This document shows, piece after piece, positions 37,603-47,748 of a DNA stretch of 64,000 bases (its first letter is position 1; each line of letters begins with the position of its first letter). The DNA comes from Escherichia coli (lineage in GTDB: Bacteria; Pseudomonadota; Gammaproteobacteria; Enterobacterales; Enterobacteriaceae): the NCBI RefSeq assembly GCF_003018235.1, contig NZ_CP027437.1. The stretch is one strand, 5' to 3'. The position numbers were made by a program, and so were the translations under genes. The notes beneath the pieces were generated by a model. That model worked only from the letters and a program-made list of their open reading frames with translations, did not search any database and had not been told where the DNA came from.

Positions 37603-38760
37603 ATGCACGTTACAGCCAAGCCCTCCAGTTTTCAATGTAATCTCAAATGTGATTACTGTTTTTACCTTGAAAAAGAGTCGCAGTTTACTCATGAAAAATG
37701 GATGGATGACAGCACTCTGAAAGAGTTCATCAAACAATATATCGCAGCGTCTGGCAATCAGGTCTATTTTACCTGGCAAGGCGGTGAACCCACTCTGGCT
37801 GGCCTGGATTTTTTCCGTAAAGTTATTCACTATCAACAACGCTATGCCGGCCAAAAACGAATTTTTAATGCATTACAAACGAATGGCATTTTATTGAATA
37901 ATGAATGGTGTGCCTTTCTCAAAGAACATGAGTTTCTGGTTGGTATCTCGATCGATGGCCCCCAGGAGCTACATGACCGCTACAGACGCAGTAATTCAGG
38001 TAACGGTACTTTTGCAAAAGTGATAGCAGCCATCGAGCGTCTGAAATCATATCAAATAGAGTTTAATACGTTAACCGTCATTAATAACATTAATGTCCAT
38101 TACCCTCTTGAGGTTTATCATTTTTTAAAATCTATCGGCAGTAAACATATGCAATTTATCGAATTGCTCGAAACCGGGACGCCGAATATTGATTTCAGTG
38201 GTCATAGTGAGAACACATTCCGTATCATTGATTTTTCTGTGCCTCCTACGGCTTATGGCAAGTTTATGTCGACCATTTTTATGCAATGGGTTAAAAACGA
38301 TGTGGGTGAAATTTTCATCCGTCAGTTTGAAAGCTTTGCCAGCCGTTTTTTGGGGAATGGGCATACCAGTTGTATTTTCCAGGAGTCCTGCAAGGATAAT
38401 CTGGTTGTTGAAAGTAATGGAGACATTTACGAATGCGACCATTTTGTCTATCCACAGTACAAAATTGGAAACATTAATAAATCTGAACTTAAAACGATGA
38501 ACAGTGTACAACTGACAGCGCAAAAAAAACGGATTTCAGCGAAATGTCAGCAATGTGCATATAAACCTATCTGCAATGGCGGTTGCCCTAAGCATCGTAT
38601 TACTAAAGTAAACAATGAGACTGTTTCCTATTTTTGCGAAGGTTATAAAATCCTTTTTTCAACCATGGTACCTTATATGAACGCCATGGTGGAGTTAGCC
38701 AAGAACAGAGTACCGCTTTACCACATCATGGATGTTGCAAGACAAATGGAGAATAATTAA
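37603..38760 (+). CDS. ydeM: Anaerobic sulfatase-maturating enzyme (radical SAM/SPASM)
   Basis: 385 aa from ATG 37603 ([21 protein letters not shown]...), CxxxCxxC radical-SAM motif plus C-terminal Cys clusters. Confidence 0.9.
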
Positions 38761-38812
38761 TAACGCTCCCTCTTTGCTCCAGTCTTAGCTTCGTTCTTAT
38801 GGCCTTAACAAG

Positions 38813-38844
38813 ACACCCGACATAAATTACTGTTGGGTGTTTCG
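38813..38844 (+). terminator. Terminator-like hairpin downstream of ydeM
   Basis: ACACCCGACA-(8 nt)-TGTTGGGTGT (one G-U) followed by TTCG. Confidence 0.5.
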
Positions 38845-39050
38845 TCATCATCATCTTCCCTTGCGAAAATTCTGACTTACGTGGTATGCGTCAGGGCATT
38901 AGCAATACCCTTGATTATCAATAGCATAACCATAACCACTGAAAATTAAAAAATTCTTTATATTTCATATTGTTAAATGATACTTAAATAAATTTCATCA
39001 GTAAATCATTGCCATAGATAATCATTGGATGGCACAATCAATTTTCGCTA

Positions 39051-40736
39051 ATGATAACCATTCCCATTACATTTCGTATGTTGATAGCAAAGTATCTCTG
39101 TCTGCTGAAGCCCTTTTGGCTGCGTAAGAATAATAAAACTTCAGTGCTGTTAATCATTATTATCCTCGCCATGATCCTTGGCGTTGTTAAAATTCAGGTC
39201 TGGTTAAACGACTGGAATAATGATTTTTTCAATGCGCTAAGCCAGAAAGAAACCGATAAGCTTTGGCAGCTTGTTCTTTGGTTCCCTGCCCTGCTGGGGA
39301 TCTTTGTATTAATATCCGTAAACAAAACATGGTTAATTAAACTACTGACAATTCGCTGGCGCGAATGGTTAACAGATTACTACCTTAATCGCTGGTTTGC
39401 AGATAAAAACTACTACTTCACGCAGATCTACGGTGAGCATAAAAATACAGATAACCCTGACCAACGTATCGCTGAAGACATTCTCTTACTGATCAGCAAA
39501 ACGCTCAGCCTTTCATTTGGCTTCATCCAGTCACTTAGCATGCTGATCACCTTTACCGTTATTCTTTGGCAAAGCGCGGGTACGCTCTCATTCACTGTTG
39601 GTGGAACTGAATGGAATATCCAGGGGTATATGGTCTATACCGTCGTGCTCATTGTGATCTGTGGAACTTTATTTACCCATAAGGTTGGTAAACGTATTCG
39701 TCCGCTTAATGTGGAAAAACAACGTAGCGAAGCGACATTTCGAACTAATCTTGTGCAGCATAATAAGCAGGCAGAACTGATTGCGCTAAGCAATGCTGAG
39801 TCTTTACAACGCCAGGAGTTGAGCGACAATTTTCATACCATTAAAGAGAACTGGCATCGTTTAATGAATCGTCAGCGCTGGCTTGATTACTGGCAGAATA
39901 TTTATTCGCGCTCGCTTAGCGTTCTTCCCTACTTTCTGTTATTGCCACAGTTTATTAGCGGACAGATCAATCTGGGCGGACTGATGAAATCGCGCCAGGC
40001 ATTTATGCTGGTATCGAACAATTTAAGCTGGTTTATTTATAAATATGACGAACTCGCTGAACTGGCTGCGGTTATCGATCGCTTGTATGAGTTCCATCAA
40101 CTCACCGAACAGCGCCCTACGAATAAGCCAAAAAATTGCCAACATGCGGTTCAAGTGGCTGACGCGAGTATTCGTACTCCTGATAATAAGGTTATATTAG
40201 AGAACCTGAACTTTCATGTTTCGCCAGGCAAATGGCTCTTACTGAAAGGTTACTCTGGTGCGGGAAAAACCACACTGCTTAAAACATTATCCCACTGCTG
40301 GCCGTGGTTTAAAGGTGATATTTCGTCTCCTGCTGACAGTTGGTATGTGTCACAAACACCGTTAATCAAAACCGGCTTACTGAAAGAGATAATTTGTAAA
40401 GCACTTCCCTTGTCCGTAGACGATAAATCGTTGAGCGAAGTACTGCATCAGGTTGGTCTGGGGAAATTGGCTGCGCGTATTCATGACCACGATCGCTGGG
40501 GAGATATTCTTTCCAGCGGCGAAAAACAACGTATCGCCCTGGCACGATTAATTTTACGACGTCCGAAATGGATATTTCTTGACGAAACTACCTCTCATCT
40601 TGAGGAACAAGAGGCTATCCGCTTACTGCGTTTAGTGCGTGAAAAACTACCCACAAGCGGCGTCATTATGGTTACACATCAACCCGGTGTCTGGAACCTG
40701 GCTGATGATATTTGTGACATTAGCGCGGTTTTATAA
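39051..40736 (+). CDS. yddA: Fused ABC transporter permease/ATPase
   Basis: 561-aa ORF; N-terminal TM domain, C-terminal ABC ATPase (GYSGAGKTT, LSSGEKQR). Confidence 0.9.
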   Translation: MITIPITFRMLIAKYLCLLKPFWLRKNNKTSVLLIIIILAMILGVVKIQVWLNDWNNDFFNALSQKETDKLWQLVLWFPALLGIFVLISVNKTWLIKLLTIRWREWLTDYYLNRWFADKNYYFTQIYGEHKNTDNPDQRIAEDILLLISKTLSLSFGFIQSLSMLITFTVILWQSAGTLSFTVGGTEWNIQGYMVYTVVLIVICGTLFTHKVGKRIRPLNVEKQRSEATFRTNLVQHNKQAELIALSNAESLQRQELSDNFHTIKENWHRLMNRQRWLDYWQNIYSRSLSVLPYFLLLPQFISGQINLGGLMKSRQAFMLVSNNLSWFIYKYDELAELAAVIDRLYEFHQLTEQRPTNKPKNCQHAVQVADASIRTPDNKVILENLNFHVSPGKWLLLKGYSGAGKTTLLKTLSHCWPWFKGDISSPADSWYVSQTPLIKTGLLKEIICKALPLSVDDKSLSEVLHQVGLGKLAARIHDHDRWGDILSSGEKQRIALARLILRRPKWIFLDETTSHLEEQEAIRLLRLVREKLPTSGVIMVTHQPGVWNLADDICDISAVL

Positions 40737-40773
40737 AAACAATAAAAGCCCTGCTGTACGGAGATAAAAATAA

Positions 40774-43146
40774 ATGAAGCGAGTTCTTATTCCTGGCGTC
40801 ATTTTATGTGGCGCTGATGTGGCGCAGGCCGTCGATGACAAAAATATGTACATGCATGTTTTTGAAGAGATGACGGTCTATGCTCCTGTCCCTGTACCCG
40901 TAAACGGCAACACGCATTACACCAGTGAAAGCATCGAGCGTTTACCGACCGGGAATGGCAATATCAGCGATCTGCTGAGAACCAACCCTGCGGTACGCAT
41001 GGATTCAACGCAAAGTACCTCATTGAACCAGGGAGATATTCGCCCTGAGAAAATCTCTATTCACGGTGCGTCGCCCTACCAGAATGCCTATTTGATTGAT
41101 GGTATTAGTGCAACTAATAACCTGAACCCAGCGAATGAGTCCGATGCCAGTAGTGCAACCAATATTAGCGGGATGTCACAGGGGTATTATCTAGATGTCA
41201 GCTTACTTGACAATGTGACGCTTTATGACAGTTTTGTGCCGGTTGAATTTGGTCGCTTCAATGGCGGGGTAATTGATGCAAAGATCAAACGCTTCAATGC
41301 TGATGATAGCAGCGTGAAACTGGGTTATCGCACTACGCGTTCGGACTGGTTAACATCGCATATCGATGAGAATAACAAGAGCGCATTTAATCAAGGTTCT
41401 TCAGGAAGTACTTATTACTCTCCAGATTTTAAAAAGAACTTTTATACCTTGTCGTTTAATCAGGAACTGGCTGATAACTTCGGCGTTACCGCCGGTTTAT
41501 CGCGCCGCCAGTCTGATATCACCCGCGCGGATTATGTTTCGAATGACGGCATTGTCGCCGGTCGGGCACAGTATAAAAACGTTATCGATACCGCAGTGAG
41601 CAAATTTACCTGGTTTGCCAGCGACCGCTTTACCCACGATTTAACATTAAAATATACCGGCTCCAGTCGTGATTATAATACCAGCACCTTCCCGCAGTCT
41701 GATCGTGAAATGGGTAATAAATCCTACGGTCTGGCATGGGATATGGATACGCAGCTCGCAAGGGCCAAACTACGTACCACCGTTGGTTGGGATCATATTA
41801 GTGATTATACCCGTCACGATCATGACATCTGGTACACCGAACTTTCATGTACATATGGTGATATTACAGGGCGTTGCACCCGTGGCGGATTAGGACACAT
41901 TTCCCAGGCTGTAGATAATTACACCTTCAAAACACGCCTGGACTGGCAAAAATTCACCGTGGGTAATGTTTCGCATCAACCCTACTTCGGCGCGGAATAC
42001 ATCTATTCCGATGCATGGACTGAACGCCATAACCAGTCTGAATCCTATGTGATTAATGCTGCCGGAAAGAAAACTAACCATACCATTTACCATAAAGGTA
42101 AAGGCAGCCTGGGAATTGACAACTATACGCTGTATATGGCGGATCGCATTAGCTGGCGTAATGTGTCATTAATGCCCGGCGTGCGGTATGACTATGACAA
42201 CTATCTGTCAAACCACAATATCTCCCCGCGCTTTATGACGGAATGGGATATTTTTGCTGATCAAACCTCAATGATTACCGCCGGTTATAACCGTTACTAT
42301 GGCGGGAATATTCTTGATATGGGATTACGTGATATCCGCAATAGCTGGACGGAATCGGTATCAGGCAATAAAACCCTGACGCGTTATCAGGATTTGAAAA
42401 CACCTTATAACGATGAACTGGCAATGGGGTTGCAGCAGAAAATCGGTAAGAACGTTATTGCGCGTGCAAACTATGTTTATCGTGAAGCGCATGATCAAAT
42501 CAGTAAAAGCAGTCGTACCGACAGCGCGACTAAAACCACCATTACTGAATATAACAACGACGGCAAAACCAAAACGCATTCGTTCAACCTCAGTTTTGAA
42601 CTGGCCGAACCCCTGCATATCAGCCAGGTAGATATTAACCCGCAAATTGTCTTTAGCTATATCAAGAGCAAGGGCAACTTGTCGTTAAACAATGGTTATG
42701 AGGAAAGCAATACCGGCGATAACCAGGTGGTTTATAACGGTAATCTGGTCTCTTACGATAGCGTTCCAGTGGCAGATTTTAATAACCCATTAAAGATCTC
42801 CTTAAACATGGATTTCACGCATCAACCGAGCGGGTTGGTGTGGGCGAATACGCTGGCCTGGCAAGAAGCGCGTAAAGCTCGCATTATCCTGGGTAAGACG
42901 AATGCGCAATACATCAGCGAATATTCAGATTACAAGCAGTATGTTGACGAAAAACTGGATAGCAGCCTGACCTGGGACACCCGCTTGTCCTGGACGCCAC
43001 AATTTCTGAAACAACAAAACCTGACGATCAGTGCCGATATTCTCAATGTACTGGATAGCAAAACCGCGGTTGATACAACGAATACCGGTGTGGCGACCTA
43101 CGCCAGTGGCCGTACTTTCTGGCTTGATGTCAGCATGAAATTTTAA
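40774..43146 (+). CDS. yddB: TonB-dependent-receptor-like outer membrane protein
   Basis: 790-aa ORF with signal peptide and a beta-barrel-like C-terminus ending in F. Confidence 0.85.
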   Translation: MKRVLIPGVILCGADVAQAVDDKNMYMHVFEEMTVYAPVPVPVNGNTHYTSESIERLPTGNGNISDLLRTNPAVRMDSTQSTSLNQGDIRPEKISIHGASPYQNAYLIDGISATNNLNPANESDASSATNISGMSQGYYLDVSLLDNVTLYDSFVPVEFGRFNGGVIDAKIKRFNADDSSVKLGYRTTRSDWLTSHIDENNKSAFNQGSSGSTYYSPDFKKNFYTLSFNQELADNFGVTAGLSRRQSDITRADYVSNDGIVAGRAQYKNVIDTAVSKFTWFASDRFTHDLTLKYTGSSRDYNTSTFPQSDREMGNKSYGLAWDMDTQLARAKLRTTVGWDHISDYTRHDHDIWYTELSCTYGDITGRCTRGGLGHISQAVDNYTFKTRLDWQKFTVGNVSHQPYFGAEYIYSDAWTERHNQSESYVINAAGKKTNHTIYHKGKGSLGIDNYTLYMADRISWRNVSLMPGVRYDYDNYLSNHNISPRFMTEWDIFADQTSMITAGYNRYYGGNILDMGLRDIRNSWTESVSGNKTLTRYQDLKTPYNDELAMGLQQKIGKNVIARANYVYREAHDQISKSSRTDSATKTTITEYNNDGKTKTHSFNLSFELAEPLHISQVDINPQIVFSYIKSKGNLSLNNGYEESNTGDNQVVYNGNLVSYDSVPVADFNNPLKISLNMDFTHQPSGLVWANTLAWQEARKARIILGKTNAQYISEYSDYKQYVDEKLDSSLTWDTRLSWTPQFLKQQNLTISADILNVLDSKTAVDTTNTGVATYASGRTFWLDVSMKF

Positions 43147-43163
43147 TAGTTCGGATTTTACTT

Positions 43164-43187
43164 AACCGGGTAAATTTGCCCGGTTTT
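43164..43187 (+). terminator. Hairpin with T-tract between yddB and pqqL (terminator or attenuator)
   Basis: AACCGGG-(8 nt)-CCCGGTTTT ending ~15 nt before the pqqL start. Confidence 0.5.
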
Positions 43188-43202
43188 CGCATGGAGATAA
43201 TT

Positions 43203-45986
43203 ATGAGAAACCTCTGTTTCTTACTGACGTTAGTGGCAACTCTGTTGCTCCCCGGGCGACTGATTGCCGCCGCCTTACCGCAGGATGAAAAGTTAATTAC
43301 CGGGCAACTGGACAATGGCTTGCGATATATGATTTATCCGCATGCTCAACCAAAGGATCAGGTAAATTTATGGCTGCAAATTCATACGGGTTCATTGCAG
43401 GAAGGAGACAATGAGCGCGGCGTGGCTCATTTTGTAGAACATATGATGTTTAACGGCACAAAAACATGGCCGGGTAATAAAGTCATCGAAACATTTGAGT
43501 CGATGGGTCTGCGCTTTGGTCGCGATGTTAATGCCTATACCAGCTATGACGAAACGGTGTATCAGGTGAGTTTGCCGACTACGCAGAAACAAAATCTGCA
43601 ACAAGTGATGGCAATCTTCAGTGAATGGAGTAATGCCGCAACCTTTGAAAAACTCGAAGTAGACGCTGAACGCGGCGTAATTACTGAGGAATGGCGTGCC
43701 CATCAGGATGCGAAATGGCGCACCTCTCAGGCGCGCCGCCCTTTCCTGCTGGCTAATACCCGTAATTTAGACCGTGAACCTATCGGCCTGATGGATACTG
43801 TCGCTACGGTCACACCGGCACAATTGCGCCAATTTTATCAACGCTGGTATCAACCAAATAATATGACCTTTATCGTGGTCGGCGATATCGATAGTAAAGA
43901 AGCGCTGGCGCTGATTAAGGATAATTTAAGTAAGCTTCCGGCTAACAAAGCAGCTGAAAATCGCGTCTGGCCGACAAAAGCCGAAAACCACCTGCGCTTT
44001 AATATCATTAATGATAAAGAAAACCGGGTGAACGGCATCGCACTCTATTATCGCCTGCCAATGGTGCAAGTGAGCGATGAGCAAAGCTTTATCGAACAAG
44101 CTGAATGGAGCATGTTGGTTCAGCTGTTCAATCAGCGTCTGCAGGAACGCATACAGTCGGGCGAGTTGAAGACTATTTCTGGCGGCACTGCGCGCAGCGT
44201 TAAAATTGCACCCGATTATCAGTCGCTGTTTTTCCGTGTAAATGCACGAGACGATAATATGCAGGATGCTGCGAATGCATTAATGGCAGAGTTGGCAACT
44301 ATTGATCAGCATGGTTTTTCTGCTGAAGAACTCGATGATGTCAAATCTACCCGTCTCACCTGGCTGAAAAATGCGGTTGATCAGCAAGCTGAACGTGATT
44401 TACGTATGCTGACCAGTCGCCTGGCATCCAGCTCATTAAATAATACGCCGTTCTTGTCGCCGGAAGAGACATATCAACTTTCGAAACGTCTGTGGCAGCA
44501 AATTACCGTGCAAAGTCTGGCGGAAAAATGGCAGCAGTTAAGAAAGAACCAGGATGCATTTTGGGAGCAAATGGTAAACAATGAGGTTGCTGCCAAAAAC
44601 GCATTGTCTCCTGCGGCTATCCTGGCGCTGGAAAAAGAGTACGCCAACAAAAAGCTGGCGGCTTACATCTTCCCAGGCAGAAATTTATCGTTAACAGTAG
44701 ACGCTGACACACAGGCGGAAATTAGCAGCAAAGAAACGCTGGCTGAGAATCTGACATCATTAACACTTTCCAATGGTGCCAGGGTTATTCTGGCAAAATC
44801 CGCGGGTGAAGAGCAAAAACTACAAATTACTGCCGTATCTAATAAAGGCGATTTAAGTTTCCCTGCGCAGCAAAAATCACTTATCGCGCTGGCAAATAAA
44901 GCAGTAAGCGGAAGCGGCGTTGGTGAACTCTCCTCTTCCAGCCTGAAACGCTGGAGTGCGGAAAACTCGGTAACCATGAGCAGTAAAGTCAGTGGCATGA
45001 ATACATTGCTCTCTGTTAGCACGCGGACTAATAACCCTGAACCTGGTTTCCAGTTGATTAACCAGCGAATCACCCACAGCACGATTAACGATAATATTTG
45101 GGCATCGCTACAAAATGCTCAAATTCAGGCGTTGAAAACGCTCGACCAGCGTCCAGCGGAGAAATTCGCCCAGCAGATGTATGAGACGCGCTATGCTGAT
45201 GACCGCACGAAATTACTGCAAGAAAATCAGATTGCACAGTTTACTGCCGCAGATGCGCTGGCTGCCGATCGCCAGTTGTTTTCATCTCCAGCGGATATCA
45301 CGTTTGTCATTGTCGGTAATGTCGCAGAAGACAAACTCCTGCCGTTAATTACGCGTTACTTAGGATCAATCAAACACTCTGATTCGCCATTAGCCGCAGG
45401 TAAACCATTAACTCGCGCGACGGACAACGCATCGGTTGCTGTAAAAGAACAAAATGAACCTGTGGCACAGGTTTCACAGTGGAAGCGTTATGATTCCCGG
45501 ACACCTGTAAATCTGGAGACGCGTATGGCGCTCGATGCTTTTAACGTCGCACTGGCAAAAGATCTACGCGTTAATATTCGTGAACAGGCATCTGGAGCAT
45601 ACAGCGTTTCTTCTCGCCTCTCGGTTGATCCTCAGGCCAAAGATATCAGTCATTTGCTGGCTTTTACTTGTCAACCGGAACGACATGATGAACTGTTAAC
45701 GTTAGCGAATGAAGTGATGGTTAAACGTCTGGCTAAAGGGATCAGTGAGCAAGAACTGAACGAATACCAGCAAAACGTTCAGCGCAGCCTCGATATCCAA
45801 CAGCGTAGCGTTCAACAATTAGCGAACACCATTGTAAATAGTCTTATTCAATATGACGATCCTGCAGCATGGACTGAGCAGGAGCAATTGTTGAAACAAA
45901 TGACGGTAGAGAATGTTAACACTACCGTTAAACAATATCTTTCTCATCCGGTAAATACTTATACCGGAGTATTATTGCCAAAATAA
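43203..45986 (+). CDS. pqqL: M16-family zinc peptidase, secreted
   Basis: Track ORF 43176..45986; start 43203 preferred (GGAG SD 6 nt upstream; signal peptide MRNLCFLLTLVATLLLPGRLIAA); in-frame ATG 43191 is the alternative. HFVEH zinc motif. Confidence 0.9.
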   Translation: MRNLCFLLTLVATLLLPGRLIAAALPQDEKLITGQLDNGLRYMIYPHAQPKDQVNLWLQIHTGSLQEGDNERGVAHFVEHMMFNGTKTWPGNKVIETFESMGLRFGRDVNAYTSYDETVYQVSLPTTQKQNLQQVMAIFSEWSNAATFEKLEVDAERGVITEEWRAHQDAKWRTSQARRPFLLANTRNLDREPIGLMDTVATVTPAQLRQFYQRWYQPNNMTFIVVGDIDSKEALALIKDNLSKLPANKAAENRVWPTKAENHLRFNIINDKENRVNGIALYYRLPMVQVSDEQSFIEQAEWSMLVQLFNQRLQERIQSGELKTISGGTARSVKIAPDYQSLFFRVNARDDNMQDAANALMAELATIDQHGFSAEELDDVKSTRLTWLKNAVDQQAERDLRMLTSRLASSSLNNTPFLSPEETYQLSKRLWQQITVQSLAEKWQQLRKNQDAFWEQMVNNEVAAKNALSPAAILALEKEYANKKLAAYIFPGRNLSLTVDADTQAEISSKETLAENLTSLTLSNGARVILAKSAGEEQKLQITAVSNKGDLSFPAQQKSLIALANKAVSGSGVGELSSSSLKRWSAENSVTMSSKVSGMNTLLSVSTRTNNPEPGFQLINQRITHSTINDNIWASLQNAQIQALKTLDQRPAEKFAQQMYETRYADDRTKLLQENQIAQFTAADALAADRQLFSSPADITFVIVGNVAEDKLLPLITRYLGSIKHSDSPLAAGKPLTRATDNASVAVKEQNEPVAQVSQWKRYDSRTPVNLETRMALDAFNVALAKDLRVNIREQASGAYSVSSRLSVDPQAKDISHLLAFTCQPERHDELLTLANEVMVKRLAKGISEQELNEYQQNVQRSLDIQQRSVQQLANTIVNSLIQYDDPAAWTEQEQLLKQMTVENVNTTVKQYLSHPVNTYTGVLLPK

Positions 45987-45992
45987 TAACAG

Positions 45993-46023
45993 CCCCGTCA
46001 ACACATCGTTGGCGGGGATTTTA
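45993..46023 (+). terminator. Rho-independent terminator downstream of pqqL
   Basis: CCCCGTCAAC-(5 nt)-GTTGGCGGGG followed by ATTTTATC. Confidence 0.6.
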
Positions 46024-46248
46024 TCAATATTCGCTATTTTTATGTAATAATTTTATAAATGCGTTCAAAATAATAACCAAGTACTAATAGTGATATTTTA
46101 AGGTCTGATTTTTACGTGATAATTCAGGAGGCGTAGAAAGTGCATAAAAATAACAGCATAAAACACCTTGCCACCACCCAAGAATTCAATAATGTATTGA
46201 TTTTCAATGATAAAATATTATTCGCATAATATCTCACGATAAATAACA

Positions 46249-46268
46249 TTAGGATTTTGTTATTTAAA
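46249..46268 (+). promoter_or_regulatory. GAD box (GadE/GadX-dependent activation site) upstream of gadB
   Basis: Exact 20-mer TTAGGATTTTGTTATTTAAA about 80 nt upstream of the gadB start. Confidence 0.85.
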
Positions 46269-46347
46269 CACGAGTCCTTTGCACTTGCTTACTTTATCGA
46301 TAAATCCTACTTTTTTAATGCGATCCAATCATTTTAAGGAGTTTAAA

Positions 46348-47748
46348 ATGGATAAGAAGCAAGTAACGGATTTAAGGTCGGAACTACTCGATTCACGTTT
46401 TGGTGCGAAGTCTATTTCCACTATCGCAGAATCAAAACGATTTCCGCTGCACGAAATGCGCGATGATGTCGCATTCCAGATTATCAATGACGAATTATAT
46501 CTTGATGGCAACGCTCGTCAGAACCTGGCCACTTTCTGCCAGACCTGGGACGACGAAAATGTCCACAAGTTGATGGATTTATCCATTAACAAAAACTGGA
46601 TCGACAAAGAAGAATATCCGCAATCCGCAGCCATCGACCTGCGTTGCGTAAACATGGTTGCCGATCTGTGGCATGCGCCTGCGCCGAAAAATGGTCAGGC
46701 CGTTGGCACCAACACCATTGGTTCTTCCGAGGCCTGTATGCTCGGCGGGATGGCGATGAAATGGCGTTGGCGCAAGCGTATGGAAGCTGCAGGCAAACCA
46801 ACGGATAAACCAAACCTGGTGTGCGGTCCGGTGCAAATCTGCTGGCATAAATTCGCCCGCTACTGGGATGTGGAGCTGCGTGAGATCCCTATGCGCCCCG
46901 GTCAGTTGTTTATGGACCCGAAACGCATGATTGAAGCCTGCGACGAAAACACCATCGGCGTGGTGCCGACTTTCGGCGTGACCTACACCGGTAACTATGA
47001 GTTCCCGCAACCGCTGCACGATGCGCTGGATAAATTCCAGGCCGACACCGGTATCGACATCGACATGCACATCGACGCCGCCAGCGGTGGCTTCCTGGCA
47101 CCGTTCGTCGCCCCGGATATCGTCTGGGACTTCCGCCTGCCGCGTGTGAAATCGATCAGTGCTTCAGGCCATAAATTCGGTCTGGCTCCGCTGGGCTGCG
47201 GCTGGGTTATCTGGCGTGATGAAGAAGCGCTGCCGCAGGAACTGGTGTTCAACGTTGACTATCTCGGTGGTCAGATTGGGACTTTCGCCATCAACTTCTC
47301 CCGCCCGGCGGGTCAGGTGATTGCACAGTACTATGAATTCCTGCGCCTCGGTCGTGAAGGCTATACCAAAGTACAGAACGCCTCTTACCAGGTTGCCGCT
47401 TATCTGGCGGATGAAATCGCCAAACTGGGGCCGTATGAGTTCATCTGTACCGGTCGCCCGGACGAAGGCATCCCGGCGGTTTGCTTCAAACTGAAAGATG
47501 GTGAAGATCCGGGATACACCCTGTACGACCTCTCTGAACGTCTGCGTCTGCGCGGCTGGCAGGTTCCGGCCTTCACTCTCGGCGGTGAAGCCACCGACAT
47601 CGTGGTGATGCGCATTATGTGTCGTCGCGGCTTCGAAATGGACTTTGCTGAACTGTTGCTGGAAGACTACAAAGCCTCCCTGAAATATCTCAGCGATCAC
47701 CCGAAACTGCAGGGTATTGCCCAGCAGAACAGCTTTAAACATACCTGA
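46348..47748 (+). CDS. gadB: Glutamate decarboxylase beta (PLP-dependent)
   Basis: 466 aa from ATG 46348 ([23 protein letters not shown]...); called gadB rather than gadA because gadC follows. Confidence 0.95.

Follow-up and report, generated by a model that had tools for sequence, protein, structure and literature searches.

The window, a 64-kb stretch of an E. coli chromosome, contains yddA, yddB and pqqL. The stretch with these genes is 97–99% identical to chromosomes annotated with them and is matched in 5411 of 5426 genomes, and together with the ORFs and the Pfam domains this confirms which genes these are and that they lie compactly on one strand, as stated in a preliminary description of the locus. 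No fourth ORF of the cluster is found between ydeM and gadB. The region is the previously described, Fur-repressed yddA-yddB-pqqL operon of E. coli, constitutes one transcription unit, and is as such already known. It has the following features:

39009–39038, + strand: promoter-like site 5' of yddA, TTGCCA, 18 nt, TG-CACAAT, from the consensus scan
39011–39071, no strand assigned: Fur operator region, two Fur-consensus matches plus published binding
39051–40736, + strand: yddA, ORF of 561 aa with Pfam domains, a fused TMD-NBD ABC half-transporter of the ABC_membrane_2 / SbmA-BacA family, FusD homologue
40774–43146, + strand: yddB, ORF of 790 aa with a Plug domain, a TonB-dependent outer-membrane transporter of the FusA clade
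43164–43185, + strand: intercistronic stem-loop AACCGGGUA-AAUU-UGCCCGGUU with the core CCGGG/CCCGG and the tail UUCGCAUGG, from folding
43193–43196 (GGAG) and 43203–43205 (ATG), + strand: ribosome-binding site and start of pqqL, read directly off the sequence
43203–45986, + strand: pqqL, ORF of 927 aa with Pfam M16 and M16_C domains and a signal peptide, a periplasmic M16 zinc metalloprotease, FusC analogue
45993–46027 (hairpin 45993–46017), + strand: terminator-like hairpin closing the operon, CCCCGTCAAC...GTTGGCGGGG + ATTTTATCAA, from the terminator scan

The pqqL ORF spans 43176/43203–45986 on the + strand and has two candidate starts, ATG 43203, which is used in the PGAP annotations, and the in-frame ATG 43191 of the K-12 annotation, which lacks a Shine-Dalgarno sequence. 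The hairpin downstream of pqqL is the top match of the consensus terminator scan, with 10 pairs, 7 of them GC, and -17.3 kcal/mol.

YddA carries the Pfam domains ABC_membrane_2/SbmA_BacA and ABC_tran, and its best solved match is PDB 6TQE (E 5.5e-68), which we take to be the mycobacterial importer Rv1819c, with transporters of the ABCD family next. Transporters of the SbmA/BacA type are involved in the uptake of hydrophilic compounds, cobalamin or peptides. YddB shows a TonB Plug domain and is itself the protein in PDB 6OFR, with a further match at E 7e-79 to FusA (4ZGV), a ferredoxin receptor. PqqL, with Peptidase_M16 and M16_C domains, is the protein in PDB 6OFS/6OFT, and 6B03/6B05/6BRS, labelled 'putative zinc protease' and presumably FusC, match at about E 1e-59. 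It is known to be periplasmic, proteolytically active and iron-regulated; close homologues of PqqL are confined to Escherichia, and beyond them the top match has 29% identity.

A promoter-like site with an extended -10 TG is located upstream of yddA, scoring 9 of 12 as a consensus match only. The search for Fur sites upstream of yddA that was proposed earlier is positive. The main Fur box GCTAATGATAACCATTCCC at 39047–39065 overlaps the ATG of yddA and agrees with the Fur consensus at 15 of 19 positions, which is the joint best value in the 64 kb, and a second Fur-type site at 39011–39029, with the core GATAATCATT, covers the -35 region and spacer with 12 of 19. The same main box has been published for CFT073, where urine and loss of fur both raise expression of the genes, a Fur ChIP peak is reported at yddA together with 42–56-fold derepression in the fur mutant, and in K-12 Fur is bound upstream of yddA. 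Membership of the Fur regulon is thus indicated by a computed box at the promoter and by published Fur binding and derepression.

By folding, the stem-loop between yddB and pqqL is the centroid structure of the junction, with -13.3 kcal/mol when folded alone and with arms that are more than 90% paired in all sequence contexts folded. It has 8–9 bp including five G-C pairs, at about -12 to -13.3 kcal/mol, and in this respect shows the GC-rich stem expected of a terminator. The ninth pair is specific to the allele in this window (T at 43177), and a C in nine of ten other sequences leaves 8 pairs and -12.3 kcal/mol. The GC hairpin reported in the preliminary description is therefore present, but the T-tract assigned to it is just TTTT (43184–43187) with two of these T paired in the stem. 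The tail UUCGCAUG has three U in eight, or four in eight as UUUUCGCA with two A-U pairs opened, where a U-rich tract has at least five, and the consensus terminator scan made no call at the stem-loop, though the same scan called 45993–46017. The distance to pqqL, previously given as about 15 nt, is 17 nt from the 3' end of the stem-loop to ATG 43203, but only 5 nt to the K-12 start at 43191. The stability is within chance, with a z-score of -1.7. An Rfam search gave no match at E up to 1, and the complementarity to RyhB is unremarkable. The sequence occurs at a median of one place per genome and is not a member of the REP family.

The core and the tail of the stem-loop are invariant in the 11 sequences compared. 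In this set (7 distinct sequences with little divergence) six of the nine pairs are invariant, two change on one side from A-U to G-U, and one is allele-specific; compensatory changes are found in none of the nine, so that support for the structure comes from thermodynamic stability and conserved sequence. The substitution A43164T in three E. coli strains unpairs the outermost base pair, AA to GG in MOD1-EC7003 retains G-U pairs, and the sole change in the Escherichia sp. E1V33 lineage is at the loop-closing position. Compared with E1V33, the most divergent Escherichia lineage, positions 43150–43202 differ at 1 of 53, against a local third-codon divergence of 26.5% (binomial P ~2e-6). The spacer between yddA and yddB, which contains no hairpin, is equally conserved with 2 differences in 37, and the conservation of the junction may thus reflect translation-initiation signals, not the hairpin. 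From the conservation of the region and its folding in every context, the stem-loop is probably functional in some way.

The preliminary description suggested attenuation or differential expression of pqqL at the hairpin, and named read-through without differential regulation as the finding that would speak against it, which is largely what existing data contain. In CFT073, RT-PCR amplicons span adjacent genes at both junctions, indicating that yddA, yddB and pqqL are co-transcribed. The fold-changes in RNA between fur mutant and wild type are 52.0 for yddA, 55.7 for yddB and 42.2 for pqqL, and all three proteins are up in fur mutants of CFT073 and MG1655, with an inconsistent ordering. The genes are tightly co-expressed in an expression compendium, and an iron chelator raises the level of PqqL protein. 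These relative values give no sign of lower or differently controlled expression of pqqL. The 3'-end tables (Adams 2021 Term-seq, TERMITe and the TRS supplements) have no entry for yddB or pqqL and thus no end at their junction, which is weak evidence because the operon is Fur-repressed and barely expressed in those cultures, which were not iron-limited.

A regulated attenuator, in which termination depending on a signal would uncouple pqqL from yddAB, is not supported and must be considered very improbable. Only the position of the hairpin between yddB and pqqL and older databases, where yddAB and pqqL are separate units, speak for it, whereas the Fur-dependent fold-changes are equal, the co-expression is tight and the genes are co-transcribed. 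The sole alternative partner that might form a competing antiterminator, CCCCGGGCG at 43249–43257, is broken in one lineage, which leaves no conserved alternative pairing, and neither a leader peptide nor a riboswitch was found at the junction; the lack of an Rfam match and of special complementarity to RyhB points in the same direction. Even less credible is an operator at the DNA level, where the 7-bp inverted repeat AACCGGG-N8-CCCGGTT would bind a dimeric regulator of an internal pqqL promoter. The palindrome is perfect and its arms are conserved, but the + strand carries no promoter-like site over the ~1.2 kb that precede pqqL, expression of pqqL tracks the Fur-controlled yddA promoter, and no known regulator is at hand.

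A constitutive partial terminator, which would stop a fixed fraction of polymerases, keep the pqqL mRNA always below that of yddAB and so set the ratio of receptor to protease, is unlikely but has more in its favour. The GC-rich stem lies just past the stop codon and is followed by UUUU if the core CCGGG/CCCGG alone is counted, core and tail are invariant, and the fold-change of pqqL is slightly lower (42 vs 52–56); a constant stop would besides leave no trace in such data, because fold-changes cancel it. Against it, the tail has three to four U in eight followed by CGCAUGG and fails the scan, RT-PCR crosses the junction, PqqL is readily induced, and the 3'-end datasets, which have little power here, show no end at the junction. 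The terminator discriminant calculated here is negative, yet it separates poorly, since the bona fide-looking terminator downstream of pqqL scores below zero too. That the hairpin has no function of its own, and is a chance palindrome in a spacer conserved for translation initiation signals or because the island has a recent shared ancestry, is possible though somewhat doubtful. Its stability is ordinary (among 200 shuffled sequences 12 give an equally good fold, and 48 loci on the + strand of the 64 kb equal or exceed it), covariation is lacking, variation is free in the outer pairs, the ninth pair is allele-specific, the hairpin-free spacer of yddA-yddB is conserved to the same degree, and disruption of the stem-loop in silico leaves the predicted accessibility of the ribosome-binding site nearly unchanged (0.43–0.46 vs 0.40–0.45). 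On the other hand, a single difference in 53 nt contrasts with the local synonymous divergence, the 40 conserved nt upstream of the Shine-Dalgarno sequence exceed what a ribosome-binding site usually needs, and the changes in the E1V33 lineage and in MOD1-EC7003 are confined to the loop-closing position or keep G-U pairs.

We consider it likely that the locus as a whole is a single Fur-repressed operon for Fus-like import, with the stem-loop as a passive element that is read through. When iron is scarce, Fur leaves the operator over the promoter and the yddA start, as shown in the literature, giving one mRNA of ~7 kb. By analogy with FusA, YddB with its large external cavity would import an iron-containing protein, which PqqL, whose activity and location in the periplasm are published, might cleave, and YddA, as a half-transporter of the SbmA/BacA type and FusD homologue, is presumed to carry the released product over the inner membrane. 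The stem-loop lies between a ribosome terminating on yddB and one initiating on pqqL, and RNA polymerase should as a rule read through it, with no regulated attenuator involved. It may act as a passive barrier to 3'-to-5' exonucleases, shielding yddAB when the transcript is cleaved or terminated by Rho within pqqL, a role proposed because published work places both a Rho-dependent region and an RNase-dependent site in this gene, and it might also delimit the pqqL ribosome-binding site on its 5' side. Its effect on pqqL output would be at most a constant trimming. Only tentatively can it be suggested that the conserved 53-nt spacer with its hairpin fixes the ratio of receptor and ABC transporter to protease, via weak constitutive termination or protection of yddAB from 3' exonucleases once Rho or an RNase has acted within pqqL; RyhB might contribute, since a fur ryhB mutant has less of the proteins than a fur mutant.

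The physiological role of the operon was earlier called poorly defined, which is outdated: a Fus-like import system, crystal structures of YddB and PqqL, membership of the Fur regulon and a contribution to UPEC fitness in systemic infection are all published, and the operon represents protein import of this kind in E. coli. A role of the hairpin, if true, would be at most a small detail of how one operon balances its products, by a mechanism, the intercistronic stem-loop, that is decades old. What is useful here is a negative result, namely that the attenuation idea fails on existing data by the finding it had itself named, and the region therefore needs no pursuit as a regulatory novelty.

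In comparison with known systems, the stem-loop resembles intrinsic terminators and attenuators in its GC-rich stem, its loop of 4–6 nt and its position shortly after a stop codon, but differs in that the U-tract is short and interrupted, read-through is published, and antiterminator, leader peptide and riboswitch are lacking. The REP element of malE-malF is an example of an intercistronic stabiliser hairpin. Like the stabiliser hairpins or SRPS in a survey (PMC10667835), the yddB-pqqL structure is a stable stem-loop without a U-tract, located between two cistrons on the 3' side of the preceding one, and the products of the operon are probably required in differing amounts, but the stem is short (8–9 bp), single-copy and not REP, and the sole listed RNase-dependent site is inside pqqL, with none at the junction. 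YddA has the domains of Rv1819c (6TQE) and ABCD4, ABC_membrane_2 / SbmA_BacA with one ABC_tran domain, but unlike these its direction of transport is disputed, with multidrug efflux in one paper and uptake-like amino-acid effects in another. The designation as an ABC exporter thus holds for the exporter-type fold, whereas export itself is qualified by this literature and by 6TQE as the closest solved relative.

By analogy, the operon is interpreted as a Fus-like protease-associated protein import system. It differs from FusABCD of Pectobacterium (Grinter et al. 2016, 2019) in gene order and in having no dedicated gene for a TonB-like FusB, although FusB is not required in the wider family of protease-associated import systems, where the composition of the clusters varies (PMC6793856). 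PqqL left the plant and human ferredoxins and the globins that were offered uncut, and loss of yddB or pqqL causes no growth defect in iron-limited LB, also unlike the Fus system. Shared with FusABCD are a TonB-dependent transporter of the FusA clade (YddB), an adjacent periplasmic two-lobed M16 protease of the FusC type (PqqL), a fused ABC transporter (YddA) that has been termed a FusD homologue (PMC5095587), and the regulation by iron and Fur.

The yddA, yddB and pqqL cluster on the plus strand (39051–45986) was correctly identified in the preliminary description, as seen from the ORFs, the annotated E. coli matches and the Pfam domains of the products. The region 38700–46300 is matched in 5411 of 5426 complete E. 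coli genomes with 95–99% identity and is annotated there as ydeM, yddA, yddB and pqqL, and the gene order along transcription is ydeN, ydeM, yddA, yddB, pqqL, gadB and gadC, the same as in K-12. The features are the following:

39051–40736, plus strand, yddA, ORF
40774–43146, plus strand, yddB, ORF
43164–43185, plus strand, hairpin between yddB and pqqL
43203 (PGAP start) or 43191 (K-12 start) to 45986, plus strand, pqqL, ORF
45993–46017, convincing terminator-like hairpin located 3' of pqqL, found by a consensus terminator scan

The ATG at 43203 gives a pqqL product of 927 residues and is preceded by GGAG 6 bases upstream, and the in-frame ATG at 43191, located 5 nt past the hairpin, gives 931 residues and has no Shine-Dalgarno sequence. 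The sequence evidence thus favours 43203 as the start codon.

The gene cluster is already well characterised. RT-PCR by Subashchandrabose et al. (2013) established co-transcription of the three genes in CFT073. In that study each gene was up more than 30-fold in urine and also up in a fur mutant, a Fur box lay over the yddA start, and yddB and pqqL mutants had reduced fitness in systemic infection. Grinter et al. (2016, 2019) classed the operon with the Fus-like "protease-associated import systems", solved the structures of YddB and PqqL, and described PqqL as a periplasmic, active and iron-regulated protein; its substrate was not found, and growth in iron-limited LB showed no defect. Fur binding and regulation of the operon have been confirmed in both K-12 and CFT073. 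The search for Fur sites upstream of yddA proposed earlier is therefore positive, with an answer that was already known: the published box at 39047–39065 matches the 19-bp Fur consensus in 15 of 19 positions and is the joint best in the 64-kb window. A promoter-like site is present at 39009–39038, and a second Fur-like site, whose core reads GATAATCATT, shares bases with its -35 region. Another consensus-like match (14/19, minus strand, GAGGATAATAATGATTAAC) is found at 39146–39167, about 100 nt within yddA and downstream of the main operator. The other 15/19 match, at 19331–19349, equals the yddA site in score and lies inside an ORF of 459 residues (18674–20053), and is probably due to chance.

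The hairpin between yddB and pqqL, AACCGGGUA-AAUU-UGCCCGGUU, is the structure predicted as centroid for the junction; it folds alone at -13.3 kcal/mol, and its pairing exceeds 90% in all contexts tried. The ninth stem pair requires a T at 43177, which is present only in the window and its closest relative; with the C that nine other sequences carry there, the stem has 8 pairs and folds at -12.3 kcal/mol. The hairpin is not unusually stable, with a z-score of -1.7, 12 of 200 shuffled sequences folding equally well, and 48 same-strand loci in the window that are at least as stable. The preliminary description of a GC hairpin with a T-tract holds for the hairpin and fails for the T-tract: the bases that follow are UUCGCAUGG, with U in only 4 of 8 positions counted from the GC core, and the consensus scan that called the terminator after pqqL did not call this structure. 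It is an ordinary intercistronic stem-loop that is not terminator-like and has no terminator tail. A d'Aubenton-Carafa-type discriminant was -1.7 to -30 for the hairpin and also negative (-11) for the convincing terminator after pqqL, and was therefore not relied on. Another stable hairpin (ACACCCGACA / TGTTGGGTGT, followed by TTCGTC) is located at 38811–38838, about 50 nt past the ydeM stop codon; it has a similarly poor T-tract, and the small ORF yneP, annotated on the minus strand, overlaps it.

It had been proposed that the hairpin leads to attenuation or differential expression of pqqL, and the published data on the junction speak against this, largely indicating read-through without differential regulation. 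RT-PCR amplicons cross the operon junctions, the three genes are tightly co-expressed in an expression compendium, and an iron chelator raises the PqqL protein. RNA fold-changes for yddA, yddB and pqqL are 52.0, 55.7 and 42.2 in a CFT073 fur mutant and 52.0, 59.7 and 48.5 in fur ryhB. The proteins are all strongly induced in fur mutants, YddA 298, YddB 2613 and PqqL 90 in CFT073, and 86, 35 and 713 respectively in MG1655, and the order of induction is inconsistent between the two strains. Folding of the junction revealed no conserved structure competing with the hairpin, and there was no Rfam match at E up to 1 over 38000–47000. A duplex scan with K-12 RyhB was unremarkable for the yddA 5' end and both spacers, 32–74% of background windows scoring as well or better. 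With this co-regulation, and with no conserved competing structure, Rfam family or RyhB complementarity above background, regulated attenuation at the hairpin is unsupported. An antiterminator candidate, CCCCGGGCG at 43249–43257, pairs with the 3' arm once the 5' arm is disrupted in silico; it is CCCCGGACG in one lineage and was rejected since it is not conserved. In the CFT073 proteomics of Banerjee (2020), induction of YddA, YddB and PqqL is weaker in fur ryhB than in fur by a factor of 2 to 12, and Beauchene (2015) reported that RyhB raises the RNA level of the operon, in which our scan gave no obvious RyhB target.

A constant partial stop, with the hairpin acting as a weak constitutive terminator, would cancel out in ratios of fold-changes, and no 3' end or processing site at the junction is listed in the supplementary tables of Adams 2021, TERMITe, TRS and the SRPS paper, a silence of little power since the cultures were apparently not iron-limited. 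We regard such a stop as rather doubtful, and as somewhat less likely than a role of the hairpin as a barrier to 3' exonucleases. The stem starts 18 nt past the yddB stop codon, and ATG 43203 follows its end after 17 nt, so that it sits between terminating and initiating ribosomes and can persist on translated mRNA. The only entries in these 3'-end and processing datasets, a Rho-dependent termination region, K-12 1573502(-), and an RNase-dependent site, K-12 1572809(-), fall within pqqL at about 44891 and 45584 when placed on the window by a gap-free alignment. After such events inside pqqL, a stem of this strength at the yddB end would keep 3' exonucleases from degrading the yddAB segment. 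A 3'-protecting stem between cistrons is the classic arrangement of an intercistronic stabiliser. This barrier role can be put forward only tentatively, and it is about equally likely that the hairpin itself has no function. A role as insulator of the ribosomal binding site was discarded, as the predicted accessibility of the pqqL site is barely altered with versus without the hairpin.

Comparison between genomes bears on the same question. Close PqqL homologues are confined to Escherichia, the genome scan giving three species-level genomes with 89–97% identity; the next best is only 29% identical, which makes a deep alignment of the junction impossible. Escherichia sp. E1V33, the most divergent of the three, has a third-codon divergence of 26.5% in the flanking 300 nt and differs from the window in only 1 of 53 positions at 43150–43202 (binomial P about 2e-6), indicating that the spacer is under constraint. 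The alignment does not tie this constraint to the hairpin in particular; the spacer between yddA and yddB, which has no hairpin, is equally conserved (2/37 differences). The outer stem pairs are variable, AA being replaced by GG with retained G-U pairs in the Escherichia genome MOD1-EC7003, and in three E. coli strains the last pair is lost through A43164T. No compensatory changes were found by formal count, and 6 of the 9 pairs are invariant. The structure is plausible and probably meaningful, and covariation gives no proof of it.

In about 15% of the complete E. coli genomes, roughly 800 of 5411, yddA and yddB are missing together with the promoter and the 5' portion of pqqL (38760–45000). 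There are at least two deletion types, one as in Ecol_732 keeping 17% of the region and one as in LF82 keeping 22%. A ydeN-pqqL fusion deletion in S1-ZIM-01-A was considered as the cause and is unique to that genome, the others carrying different deletions. Several other genomes have IS1 or ISEc52 inserted in yddA, yddB or pqqL. From these deletions and insertions the system is evidently dispensable and has been lost repeatedly. The G+C content is 42–47% in the cluster (39000–46000) and 37% just upstream, and the E. coli mean is about 51%; low G+C and close homologues in Escherichia only would both fit an island acquired by horizontal transfer.

YddA has ABC_membrane_2/SbmA_BacA and a single ABC_tran domain in Pfam, and its nearest solved relative is 6TQE (E 5.5e-68), presumably Rv1819c, an importer of exporter-type fold, followed by ABCD-family transporters. 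The earlier label "ABC exporter" is therefore sound for the fold and does not settle the direction of transport, on which published reports conflict, with efflux in one paper and uptake-like effects in another. YddA has been named a FusD homologue (PMC5095587). YddB contains the Plug domain of TonB-dependent receptors and PqqL contains Peptidase_M16 and M16_C; the structures of both proteins have been solved (6OFR, and 6OFS and 6OFT, respectively). The next relative of YddB among structures is FusA, the ferredoxin receptor of Pectobacterium (4ZGV, E 7e-79), and those of PqqL, at about E 1e-59, are 6B03, 6B05 and 6BRS ("putative zinc protease"), which we take to be the FusC protease. The operon resembles the Fus system of Pectobacterium, with YddB corresponding to FusA, PqqL presumably to FusC, and YddA to FusD as published.
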